The notes below the pieces were generated by a model. The model did no database searches, was not told the origin of the DNA, and saw only the letters and a program-made list of their open reading frames with translations. A stretch of 64,000 nt of DNA, from positions 26,663 through 90,662 of the forward strand of contig CAZWKE010000004.1 of NCBI GenBank assembly GCA_964634205.1, given 5' to 3'. The stretch is from an uncultured Spirochaetaceae bacterium (lineage in GTDB: Bacteria > Spirochaetota > Spirochaetia > SZUA-6 > RPPD01). Of this stretch, positions 1,605 through 17,036 are shown one piece after another (position 1 is the stretch's first letter; every line of letters starts with the position of its first letter). The position numbers and the translations under genes were made by a program.

Positions 1605-2465
1605 TCAGCCTTGGCGAAGTACAACAACCAGAACAATGAAAAGGGCTAAAGCCAAACGATAGATGGCAAAGCCGAGAAACGAGTGTCGACGTAAGAATCC
1701 TATCAGAAACTTGATACAAAGCAAGCCGCTTACGGCCGCCGCTAAAAAGCCAATGGGAAAGATTATGAGTTCCTTGCCGGAAAGGGTGGTCGTATGTAAT
1801 TGGGTGATAAAATCAAAAGCGCTCTTCAGGCCGGCACCGGCGATAATCGGTGCCGCCAAAAGAAATGAGAACCGGGCCGCTGTTTGACGTTTTAGCCCGC
1901 AGGCCAGCCCCGCCGTTATCGTCACCCCGGAACGCGAGACGCCCGGGAATATCGCTAAGGCCTGGGCCAATCCGATGATCAACGAGGCGCCTAGTCCGGG
2001 ATTGCCGGGTTTTTGATAGCGTTCAGTGAAACGATCGACAATGAGCAAGATTATCGCCGGTGCCCCTACAGCGCCGGCCATCAGAAGCATTGAAATACCC
2101 GGAATGGGGATGATGTGATAGGCTTCCGTGATTTTTCCCTCAAACAAAAGACCCGCGATACCGCCGGGGATACAGGCGAAAAGCAAAAACCAGGATAGTC
2201 TACGATTTTGATCCGAGCCGATCTTACGCTCGGCTATGCTTTTCACCCACGCGCAGAAGAGCGTTGCCACGTCGCGGCGGAAAAAAATGAGAATGGCCAG
2301 CAAAGTGCCCAGGTGGAGGGCCACGTCGAAGGACAAGCTCGCGATCGTGGGATCAGTCCAGCCAAAAAGCCAGGGAATGATGACGAGGTGGGCCGAGCTG
2401 GAGATCGGCAAGAATTCGGTGATGCCCTGGACGATGCCCAGGGTGATGGACTCAAGAATAACCAT
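1605..2465 (-). CDS. uppP: Undecaprenyl-diphosphatase
   Basis: 286 aa polytopic membrane protein with the UppP/BacA signature GITEFLPISSSAHL near the N-terminus and the second conserved PGVSRSG motif. Confidence 0.9.
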   Translation of the reverse strand: MVILESITLGIVQGITEFLPISSSAHLVIIPWLFGWTDPTIASLSFDVALHLGTLLAILIFFRRDVATLFCAWVKSIAERKIGSDQNRRLSWFLLFACIPGGIAGLLFEGKITEAYHIIPIPGISMLLMAGAVGAPAIILLIVDRFTERYQKPGNPGLGASLIIGLAQALAIFPGVSRSGVTITAGLACGLKRQTAARFSFLLAAPIIAGAGLKSAFDFITQLHTTTLSGKELIIFPIGFLAAAVSGLLCIKFLIGFLRRHSFLGFAIYRLALALFIVLVVVLRQG

Positions 2466-2521
2466 AGGATTTTCTCACGCTTTCTTGTTGCTTCAATTCC
2501 GAACACGATCTAGAACTGACT

Positions 2522-3304
2522 TTATCGCGTACGCGCCAGGTTTGCGGAAAACCAGGACCCCAGTGCGGTCATACGGTTGAAGAACGATTTTTGTTTCAAT
2601 TTCTCAATCCCCAGGAATCGCATTGTATCCGCCATCGTGATCGCGTACACGATTATTTTATCCCGCGTCGGCACGATGAAAAACGAAGTGTGCATCTTCT
2701 TCCTGCCCACTATGGTGAAAATGGCGAAATTAATGTTCGTCAGGTTGACGAGATCGACTTGGTACCAGCCTCCTTTCGTGCTGAAGGAGAAATCGTTGTA
2801 CATGTCGCCGGTCTGCTCCTCCTTCTCGTAGACAACGTAGTGTTTCTCCGTGGGCACAGTGGCCACTACCGGGTCGGGGAGCGGCCTCGTGTCGTGGAGC
2901 GAGGCGACACGATAGGAATCATAGATGAAGGTCTCCATCTTCCGGAGCGACTCAGAGAAGACCTGGAGCCCTTTCATGGCAGTGAAGGCGGTGAAACTCT
3001 TGAAGATCTTCAAGCCTATCTTCTTGTCGTCGGAGGCAGGCGGCCGGTCGATGAGAAAGAGGCTTTCGGCGGCGACGGACACGTCGAGACCCTGTGCCAG
3101 CGCGTTCACGTCGGCGGCAAAGGGGCTGTTCTTCCAAATCGGGAGGTCGGCCGGCTTGTCGCCGATATTGTGGAGTTCGCCCTGCCGGAAAAGCTTGGCG
3201 CAATCAGCCGCGGGCAGAAAGGAGAGGTAGTTCCTGGCGCTCTGTTGGGCGAAAGCGGAAACGGAAACTACGGCGAAAATGAGAATCACTACGGGAATTT
3301 TCAT
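2522..3304 (-). CDS. Hypothetical secreted protein
   Basis: 260 aa with a clear signal peptide (MKIPVVILIFAVVSVSAFAQQ). No family recognised. The overlapping plus-strand ORF 2591..3307 has high-GC antisense-type composition and was not chosen. Confidence 0.5.
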   Translation of the reverse strand: MKIPVVILIFAVVSVSAFAQQSARNYLSFLPAADCAKLFRQGELHNIGDKPADLPIWKNSPFAADVNALAQGLDVSVAAESLFLIDRPPASDDKKIGLKIFKSFTAFTAMKGLQVFSESLRKMETFIYDSYRVASLHDTRPLPDPVVATVPTEKHYVVYEKEEQTGDMYNDFSFSTKGGWYQVDLVNLTNINFAIFTIVGRKKMHTSFFIVPTRDKIIVYAITMADTMRFLGIEKLKQKSFFNRMTALGSWFSANLARTR

Positions 3305-4578
3305 TGATCTTTCCTTTCAGTCTTCGGTTTTGGGCCGCCGAGGGAATCGAGCGTTTCCATCAATGACTCCAAGGCCGACCGGCATTGAGACGACACCGGT
3401 CGCGCCGCGCGCATTTGTCGGAGTACATTGTCGATAAAGCCGTCCACAACCTTCCATTTGTCGGGGGCCATTTCCTGTAGCCGGGCCTGGGCGTCGTCCC
3501 ATGCCGATTCGAGGTCGGTAACCCTTGTTTTGGCATCGTTAAAGCGGCTGGCCTTGAGCAGCCGGAGCGTGTCGTCCGTTATGACGCGAAAGCCGGAGAT
3601 GTCTCCGAGCGGCGCCGTCGGAGACGAGGCGGCCGCGGCCTCGGCGTGGAGGTTATGCTGGCGCAAGGCATATCCCGTGCCGGCAACAATAACGAAAACC
3701 GCAGCCGTGGCCAAAACCTGCCGCAAGACTCTCCTCGGTTTCGGATCGTCGGCAACGCTGGCCTTCGGCTTGGGGATGATATCCTTCTTTGTGAAAGAGA
3801 GGAAAACCACGGTAGCAAGGATGGCGACGAGGAAAATTACGCTGGTAAGTGTCGGTCCCAAGCTCAAGCCGCCCTTAGAGACGGATTGCGAGAGAAAATC
3901 CCCAAGCGAGGCGCCGAGCGGTCGGGTCATGATGTACGCCACCCAGAACGAGAGCACGGCGTCCAGACCGATCCGCCAGGCGATGGCCATCGAGGCAATG
4001 GTACCGAGGACAATGAAACCCGTGACCATGTATCCCAGGCCGAGTCGCTCGGCCATAAGGTCTCCCGCGGCGGTGCCCAGGGCGAAGGTGAAGAGGATGG
4101 CCAGCCAATAAAAGGCCTCGCGTCGGCGGGTAAAAATTGAATGGATGGAAAGTGTTTTTTCAAAGGCGAACCAGATGATGAATGTAATCAGCAGGGCGAC
4201 AGTGAACACGAGCGTGCTCACCTCCAATGGGACGCCCAATTTATCCGTAAGGTTGTCCGTAACGAGCGTTCCGAAGACGCTGATCAAGACCACAGTGAGC
4301 CAATAGATCCCCGAGATGTACTTGTCCGCCCTGAATTGGAAGAATAGTATGGCGGCAAGCAGTATTCCCATCGCGACAGACGTGCCGGTGAGGCCCAAAC
4401 CGAGGTCGACGTTCAGGAAGTCGGAGAAGGTCTCGCCGATCGTCGTGCAGAGGACTTTAATGATCCAAAAGTAAATCGTCACCGCCGGGACTTTGCTGAG
4501 GATAATGCGCGATCGTTTCAGATGTTCTATTTCCATCAATTTCTCCTTGGTAGATAATAATAAAAAGTATGACTCCAT
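3301..4578 (-). CDS. Hypothetical polytopic membrane protein with C-terminal soluble domain
   Basis: 425 aa. Multiple hydrophobic helices in the first ~250 residues (two similar halves), then a charged C-terminal ~150 aa. True start may be an internal Met (MEIEHLK…). No family recognised. Confidence 0.5.
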   Translation of the reverse strand: MESYFLLLSTKEKLMEIEHLKRSRIILSKVPAVTIYFWIIKVLCTTIGETFSDFLNVDLGLGLTGTSVAMGILLAAILFFQFRADKYISGIYWLTVVLISVFGTLVTDNLTDKLGVPLEVSTLVFTVALLITFIIWFAFEKTLSIHSIFTRRREAFYWLAILFTFALGTAAGDLMAERLGLGYMVTGFIVLGTIASMAIAWRIGLDAVLSFWVAYIMTRPLGASLGDFLSQSVSKGGLSLGPTLTSVIFLVAILATVVFLSFTKKDIIPKPKASVADDPKPRRVLRQVLATAAVFVIVAGTGYALRQHNLHAEAAAASSPTAPLGDISGFRVITDDTLRLLKASRFNDAKTRVTDLESAWDDAQARLQEMAPDKWKVVDGFIDNVLRQMRAARPVSSQCRSALESLMETLDSLGGPKPKTERKDQ

Positions 4579-4672
4579 AAAATGAAAAAGACATGAAATT
4601 TTACCGGATTTTTTCTCACGGGCGGGGGTTTTTTTTCATGCCGATTTCATCTTTTAACGTTATCTTTAAAAT

Positions 4673-5362
4673 ATGCGCATTTTGATTGTTGAGGACGAAC
4701 GCAAGATTTCCTCATATGTAAAGCGCGGGTTGAAAGAACTGGGTTATGCTGTCGACGCAGCATTCACCGGGCAGGAAGCGTTGGATATGGCCGCCGTCGT
4801 ATCCTATGATCTCATCGTCCTGGATATCCTGCTGCCGGGAATCGACGGACTCAGCGTGTGCCGCCGGCTGCGAAGGCGGGGCTTGCGTGTTCCGATTCTC
4901 ATGCTCACCGCGCGGGACGCCGTCGACGACCGGGTGGCCGGCCTCGACGCCGGGGCGGACGACTATCTGGTAAAGCCGTTCGCCATGAAAGAGCTACAGG
5001 CCCGTTTGAGAGCCCTCTCTCGGCGAGGGTCCGAACGGCCGAAATCGCCGATGTTCCATATTGCCGATTTGAGCATAGATACCACGACGCGTCGCGTTCG
5101 CAGAGGAGACCGCGCCATCGAGCTGACCGCCAAAGAATACGCGGTATTGGAGTGCCTGATGCGCGAACCGGATCGCGTCTTCACGCGGGCCGTGATCGTC
5201 GAGCACGTCTGGGATTACGACATCTACAATGAATCCAATGTCGTTGATGTGTATATTCGCAACCTGAGGCGCAAGATAGACGACGGGTCAGACGTAAAGC
5301 TGATCCATACCGTCCGGGGGACAGGCTACCGCCTTTGCGCCGGGGACAAGGCCGACCAATGA
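4673..5362 (+). CDS. OmpR/PhoB-family two-component response regulator
   Basis: 229 aa. Receiver motifs (MRILIVEDE…, LDILLPGIDG, LMLTARD) plus a C-terminal winged-helix trans-regulatory domain (…YIRNLRRKID…VRGTGYRL). Confidence 0.9.
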   Translation: MRILIVEDERKISSYVKRGLKELGYAVDAAFTGQEALDMAAVVSYDLIVLDILLPGIDGLSVCRRLRRRGLRVPILMLTARDAVDDRVAGLDAGADDYLVKPFAMKELQARLRALSRRGSERPKSPMFHIADLSIDTTTRRVRRGDRAIELTAKEYAVLECLMREPDRVFTRAVIVEHVWDYDIYNESNVVDVYIRNLRRKIDDGSDVKLIHTVRGTGYRLCAGDKADQ

Positions 5363-6735
5363 CGCTGCGCGTCCGCGTGACCTTGTGGGTTTCAGGGCTG
5401 CTGATCGCGGTCATTGTGGGATTGGGAGCTTTCGTCTACGGCAGTCTCCGGCGGGGATTGGAGGCATCGATCGACGATTCTCTGCGCATCAGTGCCTCGC
5501 AGGTCGATGCCTCCCTCGATATTGAAAATGAAACGATCGATTTCAATGACGCGCCTCAGGAAAATGACGCCCGTACCAGCCTGCATGAGCGCGGGTTGAC
5601 GGTGCGGATCCTTAATCCGGCGGGTAGAGTTCTGGAAGCATTTGGTCCATACCGCGCTCTGCCCGTCGAGTCCGTCGACACGGCGGCTGTCCCGGCGGGC
5701 AAGCCTGTATTTTTGACTGTGCGTGATCCGAAAACCTCCGACAATGTACGGATGTATACGACGCCGATACGCAAAAACAACAGAATAATCGGCTTCATCC
5801 AGGTGGCGCAGAGTCGGAAAGGGATGGAAGACTCTCTGCACCGCCTCCTTTCGGCGCTGCTCTTGGGAGGCCCGCTTCTCGTGCTGCTCGCCGCTCTAGG
5901 CGGTTTCCTCCTCGCCGGCCGTACACTCGCCCCTATCGACCACATCACCCGCACCGTGCGGCGCATCTCCGCCGAAGACCTGGGCGCCAGGCTGAATCTG
6001 CCCGCGACCGATGACGAGGTCGGGCGGCTGGCCGCTACTTTCGACGAAATGCTGGAAAGGCTCGAGGGGGCGTTTCGCCGCGAACGCCGGTTCACCGCTG
6101 ACGCTTCCCACGAGCTGCGCACCCCACTTGCCGCCATGCAGATAATTCTCTCGGTGGTACGGGAGCGACCCCGTTCCGCGGCTGATTATGAACAGGCCCT
6201 GGGCGATATCTCCGACGAAGTCGGTCGGTTACGCGCGCTGTCGGAAGATCTATTGCGGCTGGCGCGCGGTGATACGCGCCGGATCGTCGAACGCGAAAAG
6301 GTCAACTTCTCCGAGTTGCTTAGCGACGTGAGCGATTCACTTCGGCCTTTGGCGGAAGCCAAGGGGGTGGCGCTTGCCTGCTCGGTCACCGAAGGCCTCG
6401 TCCTGCAGGGGGACCGGGATACTTTGATCCGGTTGTTCGTCAATCTCCTTGACAATGCGGTGAAGTTCACCGAACGCGGGTCCATCGAGATTTCCGCCCA
6501 AGCAGATAGGGAATGGATTCTGGCGACGGTCTCCGACACCGGAATCGGCATTCCGGCCGAGCACCTCCCGCATGTTTTAGAGCGATTCTACCGCGTGGAC
6601 AAATCGCGATCCGGGCGGGGAACCGGCCTCGGCCTCTCGATCGCACAGGAAATCGCGCTGTCTCATGGGGGAACGCTCAAGCTGACAAGTGCCCCCGGCA
6701 GGGGGACGACGGCCGTCGTACAGCTGCCGCTATAA
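5359..6735 (+). CDS. Sensor histidine kinase (periplasmic sensor, HAMP, HisKA, HATPase_c)
   Basis: The ATG overlaps the response-regulator stop (ATGA). It has two TM helices flanking a ~140 aa extracytoplasmic region. The H-box is ADASHELRTPL. The N, G1 and G2 boxes are NLLDNAVKF, DTGIGI and GTGLGLSIA. Confidence 0.85.
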   Translation: MTLRVRVTLWVSGLLIAVIVGLGAFVYGSLRRGLEASIDDSLRISASQVDASLDIENETIDFNDAPQENDARTSLHERGLTVRILNPAGRVLEAFGPYRALPVESVDTAAVPAGKPVFLTVRDPKTSDNVRMYTTPIRKNNRIIGFIQVAQSRKGMEDSLHRLLSALLLGGPLLVLLAALGGFLLAGRTLAPIDHITRTVRRISAEDLGARLNLPATDDEVGRLAATFDEMLERLEGAFRRERRFTADASHELRTPLAAMQIILSVVRERPRSAADYEQALGDISDEVGRLRALSEDLLRLARGDTRRIVEREKVNFSELLSDVSDSLRPLAEAKGVALACSVTEGLVLQGDRDTLIRLFVNLLDNAVKFTERGSIEISAQADREWILATVSDTGIGIPAEHLPHVLERFYRVDKSRSGRGTGLGLSIAQEIALSHGGTLKLTSAPGRGTTAVVQLPL

Positions 6736-6749
6736 AATAATCGCCGTTT

Positions 6750-6782
6750 TATTTCATCTGTATTTCATCTGTATTTCATCTC
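6750..6782 (+). promoter_or_regulatory. Three tandem 11-bp direct repeats (TATTTCATCTG x3, last copy ...CTC), directly downstream of the histidine-kinase stop and upstream of the lipoprotein/ABC operon
   Basis: Read directly in the sequence. The 11-bp period (one helical turn) is the classic architecture of OmpR/PhoB-family binding sites. Confidence 0.4.
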
Positions 6783-6849
6783 TGGTGGGGATCTTTTTTA
6801 TAGGGACGGCGTTTAGCCGTCCGTCATCCAAGTGCAAGGAGATGCTCAT

Positions 6850-7461
6850 ATGAAAATTTCCATTCTGCCTACAGCCTTTGTCCTGTGCGCGGCGTTTCTG
6901 TTGCCGGCCGGTTGCGGGAAAGCACCCGCGGCCGCCGGAGGGACGACGGCCTCTTCCGCCGCGACACAAGAGCAGCTTCCCGAGCCGAACAGCTTGGTTG
7001 GCGACATCCCGGACACCCAAGTATTCGTCAGGTATATGTCGAAGGTGGGAAAGTATTCGATCGAAGCGCCCGAAGGATGGGCCAGAACGGAAAACGGCGG
7101 CAATGTGAAGTTTACCGACCACTTCGACGGCGAGGAAGTAAGCCTCAGCGTGAGCGACGCTGCTCCGACGATCGACAGCGTGAAACGTGATCAGACGCCC
7201 GCCCTTCTCGCGAACGGCCGCGCGGTTAAGATTGAGTCCATAAAAAAAGCCGTCCTGGCCAACGGTACGGCTGTCGTTCAGATCATTTATAACTCCGATT
7301 CCGATCCGGATCCGGTGACGGACAAGCATGTACGCCTCTCCGACCTCACGATCCTTTTTTATCACCAAGGCCGACTGGCGGCGCTCACCCTCTGGTCCCC
7401 CAGTGGGGCGGACAATGCCGATCAATGGAAGCGCATTGCCGAGAGCTTCAGATGGCGCTGA
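6850..7461 (+). CDS. Lipoprotein (hypothetical), first gene of the ABC transporter operon
   Basis: Signal peptide plus lipobox (MKISILPTAFVLCAAFLLPAGC). AGGAG RBS-like sequence upstream. Stop overlaps the next gene. Confidence 0.6.
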   Translation: MKISILPTAFVLCAAFLLPAGCGKAPAAAGGTTASSAATQEQLPEPNSLVGDIPDTQVFVRYMSKVGKYSIEAPEGWARTENGGNVKFTDHFDGEEVSLSVSDAAPTIDSVKRDQTPALLANGRAVKIESIKKAVLANGTAVVQIIYNSDSDPDPVTDKHVRLSDLTILFYHQGRLAALTLWSPSGADNADQWKRIAESFRWR

Positions 7462-7462
7462 C

Positions 7463-8128
7463 ATGACGGTACTCAATGCCGAAGAACTGTATCGATTCTA
7501 CCACAGCGGAGAGGAAGAAACAATCGCCCTGCGCGGCGTGAGTCTGACCGTTGAAACCGGAGAGATGACGGCGGTTGTTGGCCCGTCGGGAAGCGGAAAA
7601 TCCACGCTGCTGTCCTGCCTGGCAGGGCTGGATGAACCCGACGGGGGCACTGTGCGTCTCCTGGACCGACGCCTGACACGACGTCCCGAATCCGAAAAGG
7701 CTTTGCTCCGGGCGCGCCATATCGGGATCATGATGCAAACGGGGAACCTCTTCGACCAGCTTACGGTGGGACAAAATATACTCGTCTCCATGCGATTGGC
7801 ACGCGCGGTGGACCGCCGACGGATCGAGACGCTGCTCGATCTGGTGGGCCTCTCCGGGCGGGAGCAGACCCTGCCGACGCGCTTGTCCGGCGGGGAGGCG
7901 GCGCGCGCGGCGCTGGCGGTGGCACTGGCGGCCGATCCGGTTCTTCTCCTTGCCGACGAACCCACCAGTCAGGTGGACGACGAGATGGAGCGGCGGCTCC
8001 TGCGGATGATCGCCCGCTATTGTGAATCAGGCGGAGCGGCGGTGCTCGTGACACATAGTGATGCTGTAGCGGGCGCGGCCCAGTTCATCGTGAAGTTGGT
8101 GGACGGAAAGGTGGTGAGCCATGAGTGA
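7463..8128 (+). CDS. ABC transporter ATP-binding protein (MacB/LolD/FtsE-like family)
   Basis: Walker A GPSGSGKST, signature LSGGEAARAA, Walker B LLLADEPT. Start chosen at the ATG immediately after the lipoprotein stop (the track ORF started earlier, inside the lipoprotein). Confidence 0.85.
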   Translation: MTVLNAEELYRFYHSGEEETIALRGVSLTVETGEMTAVVGPSGSGKSTLLSCLAGLDEPDGGTVRLLDRRLTRRPESEKALLRARHIGIMMQTGNLFDQLTVGQNILVSMRLARAVDRRRIETLLDLVGLSGREQTLPTRLSGGEAARAALAVALAADPVLLLADEPTSQVDDEMERRLLRMIARYCESGGAAVLVTHSDAVAGAAQFIVKLVDGKVVSHE

Positions 8129-8780
8129 CGTTTTGGTCGAGGGCCGGCGCTTGGGACGCAGCTATCGCCGCGGCAAAACGGAGGTCGCGGCGCTCGCAGA
8201 TGTCGATGTCACGGTTCACGCGGGAGACCGCATCGCGGTTGTCGGACCTTCGGGCGGGGGCAAGTCCACCCTCCTGCAATTGATGGGGGGCCTGGACGTT
8301 CCTACTTACGGACGTATCGTATGGCCCGCGCTCGGCGAACGTTCGTCTCTTCGTCCCGGAAAGATCGGTTACGTGTTCCAGACAGAAAGCCTCCTCGCTC
8401 CGCTCTCCGTTTTGGAAAACGTGGAGCTGCCCCTCCTCCTGGCGGGCGAATTGCGGACAGCAGCCCGCTTGCGCGCCCGGGAAGTCATGGAACGGCTTGG
8501 CTTGGAGGCGATCCTGGAAAAGCTACCGGAAGAATTGTCGGGGGGACAAGCGCAGCGCGTGGCCATGGCCCGCGCCCTCGCGGCGAGCCCGCGGTTGATC
8601 CTGGCGGACGAGCCCACCGGCCGGCTTGATCACCCGACGGCCCATCGCCTCTTCGACGTCATACTGGGGGCGCTCACCGCGGACGACACTGCGCTAGTAG
8701 TCGCCACCCACGATATGGCGATCGCGGAGCTTCTGCCGGTACAATGGCGCATTTCGCATGGTCGCCTGGAGGAAACATGA
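8121..8780 (+). CDS. ABC transporter ATP-binding protein (second ATPase of the same family)
   Basis: Walker [10 protein letters not shown], signature [10 protein letters not shown], Walker B ILADEPT. Overlaps the upstream ATPase stop by 8 nt. Confidence 0.85.
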
Positions 8781-11440
8781 TGGGACAGATCGCCGCATGG
8801 TTGAAGGGTACCCTACTACATCAATTCGGCCGCGTTATGGGTGCGGCATTGGGGGTAGCATTGACGGTCGCTTTCATCGCCTCCCTGGGCGCGTTTATGA
8901 CGACGAGCGCTGCCCAGCTGACGCGCAGAGCGGTTCACGACGTGCCGGTGGATTGGCAGGTCCAGATCGCCCCGGGCGCCGACGCGGCATCCGTCCGTTC
9001 CCGGATCGAATCGAGGACGACGGTGTGCCGGCTGGAGCGGGTCGACTACGCTTCGGTGGACGGATTTCGCGCCCGGACGGGCGGTACGGTACAGACTACG
9101 GGCGCGGGCAAGGCCGTCGGTATCGGTGATCATTATTTTCATAGTTTCCCGGCGGAATTGCGGCAGCTGGTGGGAGCTACGCACGGACTGCTGGTCGCCC
9201 AGCAATTGGCGGCCAATCTGCACGTGACGGTGGGGGATACGCTCGAAATCCTCCGTGTCGGGTTGCCCCCGGCAAAGGTGCGCGTGAACGGCGTCGTGGA
9301 CCTGCCGTATGCCGATTCCTTCTTCCAGGCCGTCGGTGTGACGGCGGGACTCGCGCCGCAGGCTCCACCGGACAACGTGGTCATTCTGCCCGAAGCCCTC
9401 TGGGATTCCCTGTTCCGGCAGCAGCAACGCATCAGTCCGGATTCAATACAAACCCAATTCCACCTGCGTCTCGGCCTTTCGCTCCCCGGCGATCCGACGG
9501 CCGCCTATGACAAGGTGAATCGGGAAGTGAAAAAAACGGAGGCGAGGATCGCCGGCGCCGCAATCGTCGCCGATAACTTGGGAACCCGGCTGCTCGCCGT
9601 CAGGGCCGACGCATTGTACGCGCAAGTGCTGTTTCTCTTTCTTGGATTGCCGGGCATGATTCTGGCCGTCCTCCTGACGTTGGCCGGCGCCGCCTCCGGC
9701 GGCCAGCGGCGTGCCGCCGAGCAAGCTCTCTTGCGCACGCGAGGCGCTTCGCCCGCCCGTGTACTGCGAATCCAAGCCTCCGAAGCCGTCATCGTGGGCA
9801 TCGGCGGGCTGGTCGTCGGGGCCGCGCTCACGCTGGCCGCCTCGCGCTGGCTGGGAACCGAAGTCTGGGACCTGTTGCGTTACGGGCCGGGTTGGATCGT
9901 CTTCGCTTCCATTGTCGGGCTGGTTCTCTCGCCGGCGGCCGTCGTCATCCCTGCCTGGCGGGAGTCGCGCCGTTCCACGGTGCTATCGGCTCGCCGGATG
10001 GTAAAGCCTTCCTCCGCTCCGCTGTGGCGGCGATTGTGGCTGGATGCGATCGTTCTGGCGATCGGCGCCGTAGAGTTTTGGCGGACGGCGAGTACGGGCT
10101 ACGCGGTAGTGCTGGCCCCGGAAGGAGTAGCCGCAAGCTCAGTGAATTACGAGGCGTTCATTGCCCCCGTCTGCCTGTGGCTCGGCGGCGTGCTGTTGAG
10201 CGCTCGCCTGTTGGGAGTCGGCCTGAGCCGCGGCCGGCGCGCATTGTCGCGCCTGCTGTCGCCCCTCGCCCGATCTTTGTCGGGAGCGGTCGCCGGGTCC
10301 CTCTCGCGCCGGAAAGGCCTGATGACGCGAGGGACCGTCATGGTCGCCCTGGCCGTCGCCTTTGCCGCGTCCACGGCGGTCTTCGACGCGACCTATAACG
10401 CCCAGTCGCGCGTGGACGCCGAGCTCACCAATGGATCCGACGTAACCGTGACCGGAACAACGGCCGCGCCGCCGAGCGCGAAACTGGCCGAGCTACGCTC
10501 GATTCCCGGCGTCGCGGCCGTCCAACCTATGCAGCACCGCTTCGCCTACGTGGGAAACGATTTGCAGGATTTGTTCGGCATTGATCCCCTCACTATCGGG
10601 GAAGCGACGAAAATTTCCAACGCCTTTTTCGCGGGAGGGAACTCGCGGGAGATGCTGGCCGCCCTGACGCGCATGGACGACGGGGTATTGGTATCTGAAG
10701 AGACGCGTGTCACCTACCAGCTCAACCCAGGCAACCCGCTGAACCTGCGCCTGCAGTCGGCGAAAGACCTTCAGTATCACACGGTGAAGTTCCACGTCGT
10801 GGGGGTCGTGCGCGAGTTCCCCACCGCGCCGAAAGACTCTTTTCTGGTCGTCAACTCGTCCTACCTGGCGCGTGAGACGGCCACCGCCGGCGCGGAGACG
10901 GTACTTATGCGCGTGATGGGCGATCGGAACGCCGTGGCCCGGCGGGCGCGCGCTGTCGTGACCGATCTTCCGGGAGTTAAGGTAACGGACCTGGGATCGG
11001 TGCAGCGGGCGATCAGTTCCAGTCTGACGGCGGTCAGCCTTCAGGGACTGACCCGGCTGGAATTGGCATTTGCCGTACTTCTGGCGGCGGGAGCTGCAGG
11101 ACTGATTCTGGGCTTGGGGCTGTTGGAGAGGCAAAAAATGTTCGCCATTCTCAAGGGGCTGGGCGCCAACGCCCGGCAACTCGGTGCATTTCTTTGGAGT
11201 GAAGCGCTGTTCATGCTCGTTCCGGGGATCATCATCGGCGGACTCCTCGGACTAGGCGTTGCGCAGGTGTTGGTAAAAATATTGACGGGTATTTTCGATC
11301 CTCCTCCTGAAACCCTTACAATTCCCTGGCTGTATCTCGCGATCCTCTGTATCGCAGCCTTCGCCTCGACGGTCGCCGCGGTCGTGACGCTGAGAATATA
11401 CTCGCGCTGTCGGGTGCTGGAAACTCTGCGGGGTCTGTAG
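8777..11440 (+). CDS. ABC transporter permease with two FtsX-like modules (fused MacB-type permease, about 888 aa)
   Basis: One TM helix, a large extracytoplasmic domain and three TM helices, repeated twice (residues ~20-410 and ~420-890). ATGATG start overlaps the ATPase stop. Confidence 0.8.
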   Translation: MMGQIAAWLKGTLLHQFGRVMGAALGVALTVAFIASLGAFMTTSAAQLTRRAVHDVPVDWQVQIAPGADAASVRSRIESRTTVCRLERVDYASVDGFRARTGGTVQTTGAGKAVGIGDHYFHSFPAELRQLVGATHGLLVAQQLAANLHVTVGDTLEILRVGLPPAKVRVNGVVDLPYADSFFQAVGVTAGLAPQAPPDNVVILPEALWDSLFRQQQRISPDSIQTQFHLRLGLSLPGDPTAAYDKVNREVKKTEARIAGAAIVADNLGTRLLAVRADALYAQVLFLFLGLPGMILAVLLTLAGAASGGQRRAAEQALLRTRGASPARVLRIQASEAVIVGIGGLVVGAALTLAASRWLGTEVWDLLRYGPGWIVFASIVGLVLSPAAVVIPAWRESRRSTVLSARRMVKPSSAPLWRRLWLDAIVLAIGAVEFWRTASTGYAVVLAPEGVAASSVNYEAFIAPVCLWLGGVLLSARLLGVGLSRGRRALSRLLSPLARSLSGAVAGSLSRRKGLMTRGTVMVALAVAFAASTAVFDATYNAQSRVDAELTNGSDVTVTGTTAAPPSAKLAELRSIPGVAAVQPMQHRFAYVGNDLQDLFGIDPLTIGEATKISNAFFAGGNSREMLAALTRMDDGVLVSEETRVTYQLNPGNPLNLRLQSAKDLQYHTVKFHVVGVVREFPTAPKDSFLVVNSSYLARETATAGAETVLMRVMGDRNAVARRARAVVTDLPGVKVTDLGSVQRAISSSLTAVSLQGLTRLELAFAVLLAAGAAGLILGLGLLERQKMFAILKGLGANARQLGAFLWSEALFMLVPGIIIGGLLGLGVAQVLVKILTGIFDPPPETLTIPWLYLAILCIAAFASTVAAVVTLRIYSRCRVLETLRGL

Positions 11441-12390: not shown

Positions 12391-14271
12391 ATGCTCTCGA
12401 CATTTTCCGGAATTGAAATAGGAAAGAGGGGGGTGATTGCCCATACCCAAGGTCTCATTACGGTGGGTCACAACCTGAATAATGCCGGTGTTGATGGCTA
12501 TTCGCGGCAGCGGATTGAGTTTTCTGCCGCCGATCCCATCTACCTTCCCGGTTTAAACAGGGAGCAGACCCCGGGACAGATCGGCCAGGGCATGCAGGTG
12601 GAACGCATAGAGCGTATCCGCGATATGCTTTTGGAAGGAGAAATAGTCAAGGAAACCGGGAACCAGGGGTATTGGGAGTCCCAGGATAAATATCTGAAGA
12701 TGCTTGAGCAGGTGTATAATGAGCCGACCGAGCATTCCGTCAGGGCCCTGATGGACAAGTTCTGGGAGTCGTGGCAGGAGCTTTCGGTCAACCCGTCCCA
12801 GATGGCGGCCAGGCAGGCGGTACTGGAACGGGGCCGGACCCTGCTTGACGGTATCCACCATGCCTATCAGAAATTCAGGGGAATTCGCGACATGCTTGAA
12901 GGGGACGTGGTCGGTACGGTGGACAGGGTGAATTCATTGGTGCGTGAGATTGCCGCCTTAAACGAGCAGATCCAGAAGGCGCGTGCCCTGGGAGACAACC
13001 CGAACGATATGATGGACAAACGGGACAAGAATATTGAGGAGTTGTCCAAGCTGATCGATATTACGGTCAATTACAACCAGGACCCGGACGAGTTGATTAT
13101 TTATACGAACGGCCGGCACATTGTGCAGGGCAAGCAGTTCCTGCAGTTTGCCACGCAAAAGACCGAGGCCAACGAGGGATACTCCACCGTCATCTGGAAG
13201 GACACCGGGGAGGCGGAGCAGTTCCGCGGGGGCAAACTGGCGGGATTTCTCCACCTTCGTGATGTTGAGACCAGGGGGGAGATACAAAAACTGGACCTCA
13301 TGACCATGAACTTCATCGACGCGGTCAACGCGGTACACCGCAGGGGATACGGGCTGAATGAAAAAACCGGTCTGGAGTTTTTTAAGGAGTACCCGTATGT
13401 GTTAAACGCAAACGGGAACTATGACCGAAATGGTGACGGCGCTTTTGATTCTTCTTATATCTTTCGAATGGCGGGCAAGAATACCCTTGATCCGCAGGCC
13501 CTGATCGGTATCCGCGGAACAATTACCCTCTCCGGTCCGACCGGGAACGTGACGGTGGATTATTTCCCCACCGATACGGTAAAGGACGTGGTGGCGCGCA
13601 TAAACTTGAGCGGCGCGGAAGTATCCGCGCGCCTGGACGAGGAGGGGAAACTCTCGCTCAAGGGAATGCCCGCCCAGGATACCGACAATCCTGATTTTGT
13701 CATCCGGCATGTTGAGGATTCCGGTGAGTTTCTGGCAGGCTATGCCGGCCTGCTGCAGGCACCCGGCGCGGCCGGGGCCTATAACTGGGCACAGCAGGAC
13801 GCGGTGGCCGCCCTGCGGAACGACGGGGCCACCTTTGCCGTAGCGCCCCTGGCACACCCTTCGGCCTGGATCGAGGTGAACAAGGACCTCGTGAACGAAC
13901 CGGCCTCTATTGCGGCGGCATCCGGGGTAAACGGCAGGTCCCAGGGGCCTGAAGACGGTTCGATGGCGCTGACCATCTCCGACCTGCGCTATAAAAATGT
14001 GATGATCGGCGATACACTTACCTTTGACGGGTATTTTGCCGAACTGGTGGCGTCCATCGGGTTGCGCGGCGAGCAAGCGGGAAAGGTGCTTTCAACGGAG
14101 AATCTTATCCTGAAAAATCATAAAGACCTGCGTGAATCCATTTCAGGGGTAAATATAGATGAGGAACTGACGACAATGTTGAAGTTTCAACACGGATACG
14201 CGGCCTCGGCGCGTTTTATCACCGAGTTCGATAAAATGCTTGACATTATCATTAATAGAATGGGGGTCTAA
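12391..14271 (+). CDS. flgK: Flagellar hook-associated protein 1
   Basis: 626 aa. N-terminal flagellar rod/hook family motif (…GLITVGHNLNNAGVDGYSRQRIEF…) and a conserved C-terminal helical region (…QHGYAASARFITEFDKMLDIIINRM). Confidence 0.9.
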   Translation: MLSTFSGIEIGKRGVIAHTQGLITVGHNLNNAGVDGYSRQRIEFSAADPIYLPGLNREQTPGQIGQGMQVERIERIRDMLLEGEIVKETGNQGYWESQDKYLKMLEQVYNEPTEHSVRALMDKFWESWQELSVNPSQMAARQAVLERGRTLLDGIHHAYQKFRGIRDMLEGDVVGTVDRVNSLVREIAALNEQIQKARALGDNPNDMMDKRDKNIEELSKLIDITVNYNQDPDELIIYTNGRHIVQGKQFLQFATQKTEANEGYSTVIWKDTGEAEQFRGGKLAGFLHLRDVETRGEIQKLDLMTMNFIDAVNAVHRRGYGLNEKTGLEFFKEYPYVLNANGNYDRNGDGAFDSSYIFRMAGKNTLDPQALIGIRGTITLSGPTGNVTVDYFPTDTVKDVVARINLSGAEVSARLDEEGKLSLKGMPAQDTDNPDFVIRHVEDSGEFLAGYAGLLQAPGAAGAYNWAQQDAVAALRNDGATFAVAPLAHPSAWIEVNKDLVNEPASIAAASGVNGRSQGPEDGSMALTISDLRYKNVMIGDTLTFDGYFAELVASIGLRGEQAGKVLSTENLILKNHKDLRESISGVNIDEELTTMLKFQHGYAASARFITEFDKMLDIIINRMGV

Positions 14272-14278
14272 CTGAATT

Positions 14279-15523
14279 ATGAACAGGGTCAGCAGTAATA
14301 TGGCAAGTATGGACGCGCAGTATAATATGATGCTGCGTGAATGGAAGATGAACCAGATGCAGAATAAAATGGGCGCCCAGACAAGAATCAAGGATCTGCG
14401 TGATGATCCCCTGGCCGCGGCACGTTCAACACGCCTGCAGTCGCAGCTTTTTCGCATGGGTAGATATAAAAAGAACATCGAACTGACCCAGGGTAACCTT
14501 AACTATAGTGAGTCGCGCCTGACCAATGCCCTGGAGGTGCTGCAGCGGGTGCGTGAGCTTTCGGTACAGGGGGCCAACGGCGTATACAGCAAGGACCAGA
14601 TGCGAGACATGGCGGTAGAGGTCAACCAGCTGCTGGAACAGCTGGTCTCACTGGCCAACTCGCGGAACGGCATGGGGAACACGGTGTTTTCCGGGTTTGA
14701 GTCGCACCTGGAACCCTTTCTGGTGATGCGCGGCAGGGTGGAAGGCAGCGCGAGTGATTTTATTACCGCCCTGCATTACCGCGGGGACATCGGGAAAAAC
14801 ATGGCCGAGGTATCCGAGAACACCTATGTGCAGATGAACATCCCCGGCAACCAGGCGTTTTGGGCGGAGAACTCCCATGTCTATGCCAATATAGATGCCA
14901 CCACCTACCAGGTCCAGGCCGATTCCACTATTCGCATTGACGGCGTGGCCATAGACCTGGAAGCGGGAGACAATATTTCCGCGATCATCCATAAGATAAA
15001 CGAGGCCCCGCTGGCGGTGCGGGCGCGGCTTGACCCGGTAAAGGATTCTCTGGTGCTGGAAACCACCACCCCCCACGGACTCTGGATGGAGGATGTGGGA
15101 ACGGGTACGGTCCTGCAGGACCTGGGAATACTGCAGAGAGGACGGTCCACCCCTCCGTATAATATCGCCGATACGGCCAATGTATTCGGCGGTTCTATCT
15201 TTGATATGGTGATGGCGGTACGTGACAGCCTCTACAAAGGTGATTCCGAAGGGGTAAACAAGGCCCTGGGAGGGATGGACCTTTCCATCGAGAGTGTTAC
15301 CTCTTCCTTGGCCAAAATCGGTTCACTGGATTCGCGGCTCCGGGTTACGGCCAAACGGCTTGATTATGAAGAGCCTGAAGTGGTAAAATTGAATGCGGAA
15401 GATGTTGATCTGGATGTAACCCAGGCTATTACCGAATTAAAAATGCTGGAATATACGCACCAGGCGGCCCTGGCTACATCCGCACGGGTTTTACGACCCA
15501 CATTATTAGACTTTTTGAGGTAA
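14279..15523 (+). CDS. flgL: Flagellar hook-associated protein 3 (flagellin-like N/C termini)
   Basis: 414 aa immediately after flgK. Flagellin-like N-terminal helix (…MASMDAQYNMMLREWKMNQMQNKM…) and C-terminal helix. Confidence 0.85.
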   Translation: MNRVSSNMASMDAQYNMMLREWKMNQMQNKMGAQTRIKDLRDDPLAAARSTRLQSQLFRMGRYKKNIELTQGNLNYSESRLTNALEVLQRVRELSVQGANGVYSKDQMRDMAVEVNQLLEQLVSLANSRNGMGNTVFSGFESHLEPFLVMRGRVEGSASDFITALHYRGDIGKNMAEVSENTYVQMNIPGNQAFWAENSHVYANIDATTYQVQADSTIRIDGVAIDLEAGDNISAIIHKINEAPLAVRARLDPVKDSLVLETTTPHGLWMEDVGTGTVLQDLGILQRGRSTPPYNIADTANVFGGSIFDMVMAVRDSLYKGDSEGVNKALGGMDLSIESVTSSLAKIGSLDSRLRVTAKRLDYEEPEVVKLNAEDVDLDVTQAITELKMLEYTHQAALATSARVLRPTLLDFLR

Positions 15524-16352: not shown

Positions 16353-17036
16353 TTATTTTCCCTTATCTTCACCGGCGTTAAGCTCTGCCTCGCTTTTGCG
16401 AAGGTAAAGCGGGCCGATAGCGGGTGAAGCGGCCCCTTGTTGTTCGAATATAAGTTTTCCCAGCTCCAGCAGGGTCCCGCTTTCAACGGGTGTTGCAAAC
16501 AACTGCGGTTCGGTGGTAAGGGGCAGGCCTGCGTCACGGATTTTCTCCAGCGCCGTGCCCGCGTGCGGTCCGGTAAGCAGGACCCCCGGCCGCTCATTGA
16601 TAAGCGACGCCAGTTCCCCGGGGCGGGCGTCACAATAATCTCCCCGGCGTTCTCCGCCTTCGTAAAGAGCACAATAAAAACGGTTTTTTCTGGCATCGAT
16701 CACCGGCAGAACCGGCTGCCCCCACAGGCGGAACCGGTACCCCAGGGCATCCAGACCGGAAATCGCCACCAGCGGACAACCCGTTCCGCTACGGATACCC
16801 TTGGCGGTGGACAACCCGATACGCAGCCCGGTAAAAGAACCCGGTCCCCGGTTGCAGACCACAAGGTCCAATGCCTCCGGTGCAATACCCAACTGATTGA
16901 ACAGAAACTCTATATATGGTATCAAGTTCTCACCATGGCGATACCCCACCTGCGCGGAAACGTTGATGCTGTGCTCTCCGCTTTCCAGTGTTACCGCCAG
17001 ACTTTCCGTTGCCGTATCAATCGCCAGTGTGTTCAT
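16353..17036 (-). CDS. tsaB: tRNA threonylcarbamoyladenosine biosynthesis protein TsaB (YeaZ)
   Basis: 227 aa. N-terminal MNTLAIDTATE… (the inactive Kae1 paralogue signature) and GPGSFTGLRIG. Confidence 0.85.
   Translation of the reverse strand: MNTLAIDTATESLAVTLESGEHSINVSAQVGYRHGENLIPYIEFLFNQLGIAPEALDLVVCNRGPGSFTGLRIGLSTAKGIRSGTGCPLVAISGLDALGYRFRLWGQPVLPVIDARKNRFYCALYEGGERRGDYCDARPGELASLINERPGVLLTGPHAGTALEKIRDAGLPLTTEPQLFATPVESGTLLELGKLIFEQQGAASPAIGPLYLRKSEAELNAGEDKGK

Follow-up and report, generated by a model that had tools for sequence, protein, structure and literature searches.

In a 64-kb stretch of DNA from an uncultured Spirochaetaceae bacterium (contig CAZWKE010000004.1, positions 26,663 to 90,662; hereafter the window, to which all coordinates given without a locus prefix refer), three tandem 11-bp direct repeats at 6750-6782 lie between the genes of an OmpR-type two-component system and an operon for a lipoprotein and an ATP-binding cassette (ABC) system. 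These repeats are quite probably the operator at which the OmpR/PhoB-family response regulator encoded at 4673-5362 would activate the lipoprotein/ABC operon. An earlier note on this DNA had proposed such control of the adjacent transporter, and the proposal is supported by the recurrence of the repeat at the promoters of the regulator gene and of a DUF347 gene, by its conservation across phyla, by a fixed 10-nt distance to the -10 hexamer, and by its association with the regulator and the recognition helix of that protein, and not with the transporter. What is new with respect to that earlier reading is the set of three promoters with autoregulation, the pho-box geometry shared across phyla, and a third half-site specific to one lineage.

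The Direct Repeats and Their Distribution in the Window

The three repeats were confirmed by direct reading and by Tandem Repeats Finder, which gave a period of 11, 2.9 copies, 100% matches, and a score of 64, the highest of its 27 rows for the window. The half-sites are direct rather than inverted and recur at an 11-bp period, as in operators of the OmpR/PhoB family. The repeats, the two other operators, and the predicted -10 hexamers are as follows:

6750-6760, plus strand: first 11-bp unit, TATTTCATCTG, with its TTTCAT half-site core at 6752-6757 (proposed lipoprotein/ABC operator, first unit)
6761-6771, plus strand: second 11-bp unit, TATTTCATCTG, core at 6763-6768
6772-6782, plus strand: third 11-bp unit, TATTTCATCTC, core at 6774-6779
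6790-6795, plus strand: predicted -10 hexamer GATCTT of the lipoprotein operon, from the family geometry, exactly 10 nt past the proximal half-site
4634-4650, plus strand: second operator, TTTCATgccgaTTTCAT, facing the regulator gene (autoregulation), kept in locus L001
4661-4666, plus strand: predicted -10 hexamer TATCTT of the regulator promoter, 10 nt past the half-site
4582-4598, minus strand: third operator, TTTCATgtcttTTTCAT, facing the DUF347 gene, kept in locus L001
4566-4571, minus strand: predicted -10 hexamer CATACT of the DUF347 promoter, 10 nt past the proximal half-site

The pair TTTCAT-N5-TTTCAT is present at four places in the 64 kb, where 0.04 would be expected; no shuffled sequence reached four, and the looser YTTCAT-N5-YTTCAT returns the same four matches. 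All are confined to the two intergenic regions on either side of the regulator-kinase gene pair. Two of them overlap each other within the triple repeat, and the others are the sites at 4634-4650 and 4582-4598 on opposite strands. From where these four pairs fall, it follows that three promoters of the module share one direct repeat and that one of them is autoregulatory.

The complete 11-mer, searched with up to two mismatches, has 21 matches in the window where 18.8 are expected, its own three copies being counted; because there is no enrichment elsewhere in the window, the triple repeat is not a dispersed element. A chance occurrence or a repeat resembling repetitive extragenic palindromes (REP) or miniature inverted-repeat transposable elements (MITE) is thus excluded, the 11-mer being unenriched and the TTTCAT pair restricted to this module. 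A scan of IMG/VR with the 21-mer TATTTCATCTGTATTTCATCT gave five matches (L166-L170), all in homologous phage contigs with common flanking sequence and with no two-component system linked to the 21-mer, apparently a single, independent, and coincidental event. The dispersed repeat at unrelated loci, which the earlier note had set against its own proposal, was therefore encountered neither in the scans for the 11-mer and the pair motif in the window nor in that of IMG/VR.

Conservation of the Site with the Regulator

A scan for relatives of the regulator, with one genome retained per species, gave 80 loci, of which 36 hold orthologues and 44 are more distant. The closest relative, L001, is a Spirochaetaceae metagenome-assembled genome in which the regulator is 88% identical and the module syntenic; its DNA is 91% identical to the window over 1819-8263, left flank included, and it carries all three operator sites. 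The next relatives (63-76% identity) are almost all from the Chloroflexota, mainly Anaerolineae, such that the 36 orthologue loci comprise one from Spirochaetaceae and a remainder that is almost entirely Chloroflexota. Around these 36 loci, [CT]TTCAT-N5-[CT]TTCAT was found 71 times in 542 kb. Shuffles that preserved local composition averaged 0.28 and never exceeded 2, and the motif was not found at all in the 656 kb that surround the 44 more distant regulators. Of the 36 orthologue loci, 24 have the site ahead of the regulator gene, and it is also found immediately 3' of the kinase gene and 5' of recurrent neighbours with envelope functions.

The genes behind these sites include small secreted PepSY proteins (12 sites), lipoproteins heading two ATPases and an FtsX permease (four Chloroflexota loci), DUF347 proteins (three), PAP2 or DedA-PAP2 proteins (three), another ABC ATPase (three), a family-2 glycosyltransferase, and a phosphoesterase. 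The divergent DUF347 arrangement with its site is present in the Chloroflexota locus L008 as well. Orthologues that bear the motif share a nearly invariant recognition helix, (F/Y)N(Q/E)SNVVDVYIRNLRRK, which differs in loci that lack the motif. In the literature searched, no CTTCAT or TTTCAT box was described for Chloroflexota or spirochaete regulators, and a literature search on YclJ found nothing.

The lipoprotein/ABC cassette is widespread: a second scan, made with the lipoprotein on metagenomes, gave 75 loci, nearly all of which have the order lipoprotein-ATPase-ATPase-permease. Only two of them, L081 and L087, have the motif together with its -10 geometry, and the motif is thereby excluded as a property of the cassette. 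L081 belongs, like L001, to the sister lineage and encodes a regulator orthologue; in L087, CTTCAT-N5-CTTCAT, 10 nt, and TAGACT stand immediately 5' of a lipoprotein that is 46% identical to that of the window, in a sequence that ends about 250 nt 5' of the site and does not cover the regulator. A further match, in L096, is without a -10 hexamer. In cassette loci with neighbouring regulators that are only 36-52% identical, the motif is absent, and the regulator is the sole DNA-binding protein that is consistently linked to it.

Many cassette loci from soil have ATGACAAATTTGTCAT upstream in place of the motif. In ten of these (L089, L090, L093, L096, L106, L107, L119, L122, L123, and L125), ATGACAA(A/T)TTTGT(C/A)A(T/C) is followed by (C/T)ATGTCAT, and this conserved ATGACAA-type element lies about 100-150 nt 5' of the lipoprotein gene. 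It resembles the box of CusR/CopR, and if it is such a box, the cassette would be under different OmpR-family regulators according to lineage. DUF347 adjoins an OmpR-type two-component system and the lipoprotein/ABC cassette in L124, L127, L128, L134, L141, L142, L144, and L008, an adjacency that persists at regulator identities as low as 36-48%. Together, DUF347, such a two-component system, and the ABC cassette appear to make up a conserved functional neighbourhood.

Promoter Geometry

The geometry was counted over the 63 unique sites from the orthologue loci. A TAnnnT hexamer starts exactly 10 nt past the promoter-proximal half-site in 56 of them, and at any other offset between 4 and 19 such a hexamer is present in at most 6 of the 63. 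Within the -10 hexamer, position 2 is A in 62 and position 6 is T in 61, and the spacer between the half-sites, which is where a -35 element would be located, has no consensus over the 63 sites. The features of a promoter of the pho-box type, in which the operator replaces the -35 element, are thus both found: a fixed distance of about 10 bp and the absence of a -35 consensus.

The three predicted -10 hexamers of the window (GATCTT, TATCTT, and CATACT) all retain A at position 2 and T at position 6, and their weakness is as expected for activator-dependent promoters. The lipoprotein promoter has no -35 consensus (ATCTGT at 6767-6772), and its transcription start is predicted at about 6802. The regulator gene is without a Shine-Dalgarno sequence (4651-4675), and its mRNA is probably leaderless, starting at about the A of the ATG at 4673, since the predicted -10 hexamer at 4661-4666 sets the start there. 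Several Chloroflexota orthologues have comparably short regulator leaders.

Activation or Repression

The mechanism proposed is as follows. The phosphorylated regulator would bind head-to-tail to the TTTCAT half-sites, which are one helical turn apart, and the two promoter-proximal half-sites, at about -39/-34 and -28/-23 as counted from GATCTT, would replace the -35 element. The bound regulator would then recruit RNA polymerase and so activate the operon for the lipoprotein, the two ATPases, and the FtsX permease, and the same regulator would activate its own gene and the divergent DUF347 gene via the two-copy sites at 4634-4650 and 4582-4598.

At this site the same regulator might instead act as a repressor or an autoregulatory brake, by keeping RNA polymerase off the lipoprotein promoter. 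The repeats do cover part of the core promoter region (about -50 to -23), and regulators of the OmpR/PhoB family may repress depending on the position of their sites (PMC10294691; PMC11825685). This explanation is considered very unlikely: no -35 consensus lies under or between the half-sites (6767-6772), the spacers vary across the 63 sites, the -10 hexamer is weak, and the strict 10-nt spacing is that of activator-dependent promoters of the pho-box type, a geometry for which a repressor has no need.

Several points nonetheless count against the proposed operator and its activating role. The position of the site is, taken by itself, formally compatible with repression too. A generic sigma-70 scan of the lipoprotein promoter returned no promoter, the predicted -10 hexamer GATCTT matches TATAAT at three of six positions, and an alternative -10 hexamer, TATAGG at 6799-6804, would put the start within the hairpin described below. 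The exact site is missing 5' of the regulator gene in 12 of the 36 orthologue loci, some of which have a site with one mismatch. Finally, three half-sites are an odd number for a regulator that forms dimers.

The Third Copy

Ten independent metagenome assemblies with an identical lipoprotein have the same intergenic region as the window, with all three copies, and two assemblies of the sister lineage (L001 and L081) have two copies, TATTTCATTTG and TATTTCATCTC, in an intergenic region that is otherwise 93% identical. It follows that the third unit arose by a genuine 11-bp duplication, which is fixed in the lineage of the window. The identical three-copy region in the ten assemblies excludes an assembly artefact; a phase-variable or hypervariable repeat is likewise excluded, as all ten have exactly three copies and only the sister lineage (91-93% nucleotide identity) has two.

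Two copies are the norm (53 of the 63 sites), and three are found in the other 10, among which the operators of L003/L004, L008, and L016 have spacers that are not identical. Because three-copy operators recur in other loci, a third half-site in phase is a maintained variant. The distal copy in the window is the product of an 11-bp slippage duplication; its most likely effect is to bring in a further, cooperatively bound subunit and thereby a higher affinity of the operator.

Alternatively, the triple repeat could be a neutral product of slippage and have no function, with just the two ancestral copies mattering, or none. Units 1 and 2 are identical, as in a recent duplication, and only two copies are present in the sister lineage. 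However, the two ancestral copies are conserved across phyla in a fixed geometry, the three-copy operators elsewhere have different spacers, the three-copy state does not vary among the ten assemblies, and a third in-phase motif raised the affinity of PhoP in Mycobacterium tuberculosis. A neutral origin without function is, on this evidence, quite unlikely, and an operator with an additional, cooperatively occupied half-site is preferred. The two-copy and three-copy promoters of the sister lineages amount to a natural experiment on the effect of an extra half-site on the output of the regulator.

The Hairpin in the Lipoprotein Leader

Downstream of the repeats, the earlier note had placed a hairpin, GGACGGC-gttta-GCCGTCC, ahead of the ribosome-binding site. 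The stem-loop was found where it had been described except that its coordinates, given as 6803-6821, were 1 nt off and are properly 6804-6822:

6804-6810 and 6816-6822, plus strand: the two arms, GGACGGC and GCCGTCC, of a 7-bp GC stem-loop with the loop gttta (direct reading and folding)
6836-6842, plus strand: Shine-Dalgarno sequence AAGGAGA, 7 nt ahead of the ATG at 6850

The hairpin is predicted to form in RNA, where the 69-nt lipoprotein leader has a folding energy of -23 kcal/mol (z = -3.1). With a start at about 6802, as counted from the -10 hexamer at 6790-6795, the stem would begin 1-2 nt from the 5' end of the mRNA, and the stems in the orthologue leaders begin 8-11 nt past the -10 hexamer. 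In the orthologue loci, a stable 5' fold (z < -2 over the first 40 nt) was found in 13 of 38 leaders of targets other than the regulator, as against none of 24 regulator leaders, and the two classes of leader differ in folding (Mann-Whitney p = 0.0014). The stems of the window and of three leaders with recognisable homologues of its hairpin compare as follows:

Window: GGACGGC / GCCGTCC
L017, leader immediately 3' of the kinase gene: GGATGGC / GCCATCC, compensatory change
L006, leader at 9214, 5' of the regulator gene: GGAAGGC / GCCTTCC, compensatory change
L012, leader immediately 3' of the kinase gene: GGACGGC / GCCCTCC, one mismatch

The window, L012, and L017 have a layout in common: the hairpin, 12-13 nt, AAGGAGA, 7 nt, and ATG. 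In an alignment of five hairpins, 91% of the cells are paired and one position is C-G, U-A, or A-U.

The hairpin is best read as a feature of the 5' end of the mRNA, outside the operator and not a terminator. From its position and its recurrence, it might tentatively be taken, at somewhat less than even odds, for a 5'-terminal stabilising stem-loop of the regulated mRNA, in which case it would most likely shield the extreme 5' end of the induced transcript from decay that depends on that end. The covariation within the hairpin is positive but weak: among five sequences a single pair covaries, and the score was equalled or exceeded in 17 of 500 shuffles. A search with a covariance model built on the GGAYGGC hairpin retrieved no more than the five training sequences and L001, so that the hairpin does not represent a widespread RNA family of specific sequence; the other matches of the model are weak (E >= 0.04), one being a training hairpin on the reverse strand and the rest lying off operator sites. 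A specific conserved RNA motif was accordingly rejected, the hairpins of the other leaders being diverse in sequence, and a known RNA family was excluded, as Rfam 15 gave three sub-threshold matches (E >= 2.4), none of them at the hairpin.

A different explanation is that the hairpin, with or without the repeats, terminates or attenuates the regulator-kinase transcript, or that another dimeric protein uses it as a palindromic operator. It is, after all, a stable 7-bp GC stem between two operons, and a run of six T's lies ahead of it at 6794-6799. Yet the stem is followed by GTCATCCAAG, with no T/U tract past it on either strand, and a terminator scan of 6700-6900 was empty, such that an intrinsic terminator is excluded; the hairpin also sits 3' of the predicted -10 hexamer. 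As for a palindromic operator, the hairpins in the orthologous leaders vary in sequence and in loop length (from 3 to about 20 nt), and an RNA structure therefore fits where a fixed protein operator does not. Both forms of this explanation are together highly improbable, and a structure at the 5' end of the message remains the preferred reading of the hairpin.

Two observations concern the sequence around the operator. The 3' end of the kinase gene has a perfect 14-nt palindrome, ACGACGGCCGTCGT, at 6706-6719 (within 6696-6737), and a 34-nt stretch at 6704-6737 is 71% complementary to 6796-6829. These imperfect inverted repeats bracket the operator and may be due to chance in GC-rich coding sequence.

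Genes of the Module and Its Origin

The gene map was obtained from Pfam and NCBIfam scans and from public gene calls on identical contigs:

3301-4536, minus strand: DUF347 membrane protein, 411 aa (Pfam DUF347, E = 4e-58; public gene call; ATG at 4536 behind AAGGAGA)
4673-5362, plus strand: OmpR/PhoB-family response regulator, 229 aa, the proposed binder (Response_reg, E = 2e-30; Trans_reg_C, E = 4e-28)
5359-6735, plus strand: sensor histidine kinase, 458 aa (ArlS_N-like sensor, HAMP, HisKA, and HATPase_c), stopping at 6735
6850-7461, plus strand: probable lipoprotein, 203 aa, first gene of the operon (signal peptide ending in LLPAGC)
7463-8128, plus strand: ABC ATPase 1, 221 aa (Pfam ABC_tran, E = 1e-31; public gene call)
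8121-8780, plus strand: ABC ATPase 2, 219 aa (Pfam ABC_tran, E = 7e-29; public gene call)
8777-11440, plus strand: FtsX-type permease, 887 aa by the public gene call (Pfam FtsX in two stretches; longest open reading frame from 8744)

The regulator and the kinase carry complete canonical sets of domains, and the DUF347 gene is a predicted member of the regulon. For the lipoprotein, the Pfam scan gave only a weak, sub-threshold match to PsbP. The best NCBIfam match of the regulator is CusR/CopR, TIGR01387 (254.1 bits, below the cut-off of 279.2), and that of the kinase is the CusS type, TIGR01386 (269.2 bits, below the cut-off of 292.55). Against PhoB, TIGR02154, the regulator scores 220.8 with a cut-off of 296.2, and the kinase is far under the PhoR cut-offs. 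The Pho regulon proper was rejected on these PhoB and PhoR scores and on the targets, which are a lipoprotein, an ABC system, and DUF347; a heavy-metal system of the CusRS/CopRS type was rejected on its sub-cut-off scores and on a module without metal-resistance genes.

PepSY is the commonest target after the regulator gene in the Chloroflexota loci (L012:12084-12700, L017:4169-4260, L022:12085, L006:9214, L008:9322, and others), where its gene is often immediately 3' of the kinase gene and has a hairpin leader. The window has no PepSY gene, and because its lipoprotein leader nonetheless shares the layout of the PepSY leaders, a deletion or a promoter capture that left the lipoprotein behind a leader of the PepSY type is suggested. 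In L006, a Bellilinea contig, a second operator, hairpin, and PepSY start at 16641-16760 are degraded: the -10 hexamer is displaced by 1 nt, a mismatch interrupts the hairpin, and the reading frame is broken, which looks like a decaying duplicate of the target. A small PepSY protein beside a two-component system modulates the kinase in the DbfQRS system of Vibrio cholerae (PMC12714742).

The module genes (3301-11440) have a GC content of 57-64.5%, compared with about 51% in the flanks, and the two intergenic regions are AT-rich (31% and 42% GC). Composition and phylogeny thus suggest horizontal acquisition of the whole module, DUF347 through permease, by a Spirochaetaceae lineage: its GC content is higher, its flanks are spirochaetal, and, outside one Spirochaetaceae lineage, the relatives of its regulator and kinase are almost exclusively from the Chloroflexota. 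Genes resembling flgK and flgL at 12391-15523 were recognised by translation in the spirochaete flank. For the ABC cassette itself, the nearest relatives are L082-L086, at 66-69% protein identity; these are unassigned metagenome contigs without the motif, and the module may therefore be a mosaic. A likeness between the window at 31.1-32.7 kb and L002 and L025 proved on translation to be the conserved excinuclease gene uvrB.

A more far-reaching, and unlikely, scenario would combine acquisition of the module from another phylum, adaptive retuning of the operator by the 11-bp duplication, and use of the recurrent 5' hairpin as a shared post-transcriptional control element of the envelope regulon in place of a generic stabilising function. 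Were such retuning to have occurred, the third half-site would offset weak -10 hexamers (GATCTT and CATACT) or a foreign RNA polymerase.

For a two-component family that is uncharacterised, widespread, common in Anaerolineae, and probably transferred into a Spirochaetaceae lineage, these results provide a concrete operator, [CT]TTCAT-N5-[CT]TTCAT, 10 nt, and TAnnnT. The predicted regulon comprises the PepSY protein, the lipoprotein and its FtsX-type ABC system, DUF347, and the PAP2/DedA proteins, and it looks like an envelope-stress or resistance response.

Comparison with Known Systems

Stabilising stem-loops at the extreme 5' end are a feature of the leaders of ompA in Escherichia coli and aprE in Bacillus subtilis. 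The GC-rich hairpin of the window similarly lies a few nt from the predicted 5' end and 5' of a free Shine-Dalgarno sequence; it differs from those leaders in that here the indications of function are its position and its recurrence in orthologous leaders.

The CusR/CopR family (TIGR01387) and the CusS-type kinases provide the best NCBIfam matches to the regulator and kinase of the window, and the ATGACAAATTTGTCAT element of the soil cassettes resembles the CusR box, but there are no copper or silver efflux genes nearby and the operator is a TTTCAT direct repeat.

In the HssRS-HrtAB and HitRS-HitPQ systems of Staphylococcus aureus and Bacillus anthracis, a direct repeat in the promoter is needed for induction (PMC3968170). 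There, as in the window, the two-component genes adjoin an ABC transporter operon with a direct-repeat promoter; the window differs in having two separate ATPases, an 887-aa permease with a double FtsX domain, and a lipoprotein. The HssR repeat, GTTCATATT-N2-GTTCATATT, has the same TTCAT core and 11-bp period as the window, although this form was not found in the text searched.

Regulators of the OmpR/PhoB family occupy direct repeats as tandem dimers. The PhoP protein of M. tuberculosis, which is among the closest solved structures to the regulator of the window (E = 8e-51), binds as a tandem head-to-tail dimer to 7-bp motifs with a 4-bp spacer and does so more tightly on tri- and tetra-repeats than on a pair (PMC4832192). 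A promoter-proximal PhoP dimer over the -35 element displaces the contact made by region 4 of sigma (PMC11825685), and in Streptomyces the PhoP operators consist of two to six units of 11 nt, with binding extended cooperatively from core units (PMC2275107). The differences from these PhoP systems are in the half-site (TCACAGC or GTTCACC compared with TTTCAT here), the regulon, and the signal.

The closest parallel in geometry is with the pho box of E. coli, which Makino et al. reportedly described in 1986 as CTGTCAT-N4-CTGTCAT, 10 bp upstream of the -10 hexamer. Like the repeats of the window, it consists of 11-bp direct repeats that replace the -35 element and end, on the proximal side, 10 bp before the -10 hexamer, and its half-site, CTGTCAT, is nearly the same as the (C/T)TTCAT(C) found here. 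The regulator of the window is, however, not an orthologue of PhoB (sub-cut-off score with TIGR02154), its kinase differs from PhoR in having an ArlS_N-like extracytoplasmic sensor, and the module has no pst or pho genes but has envelope and FtsX-type ABC targets and three half-sites. The spacing of the pho box, a direct repeat, relative to the core promoter elements is strict (PMC10294691). In concept, the site in the window is thus a standard activator site of the pho-box type, an ordinary bacterial switch that is not surprising in itself and that is useful as a prediction of an operator and of its regulon.

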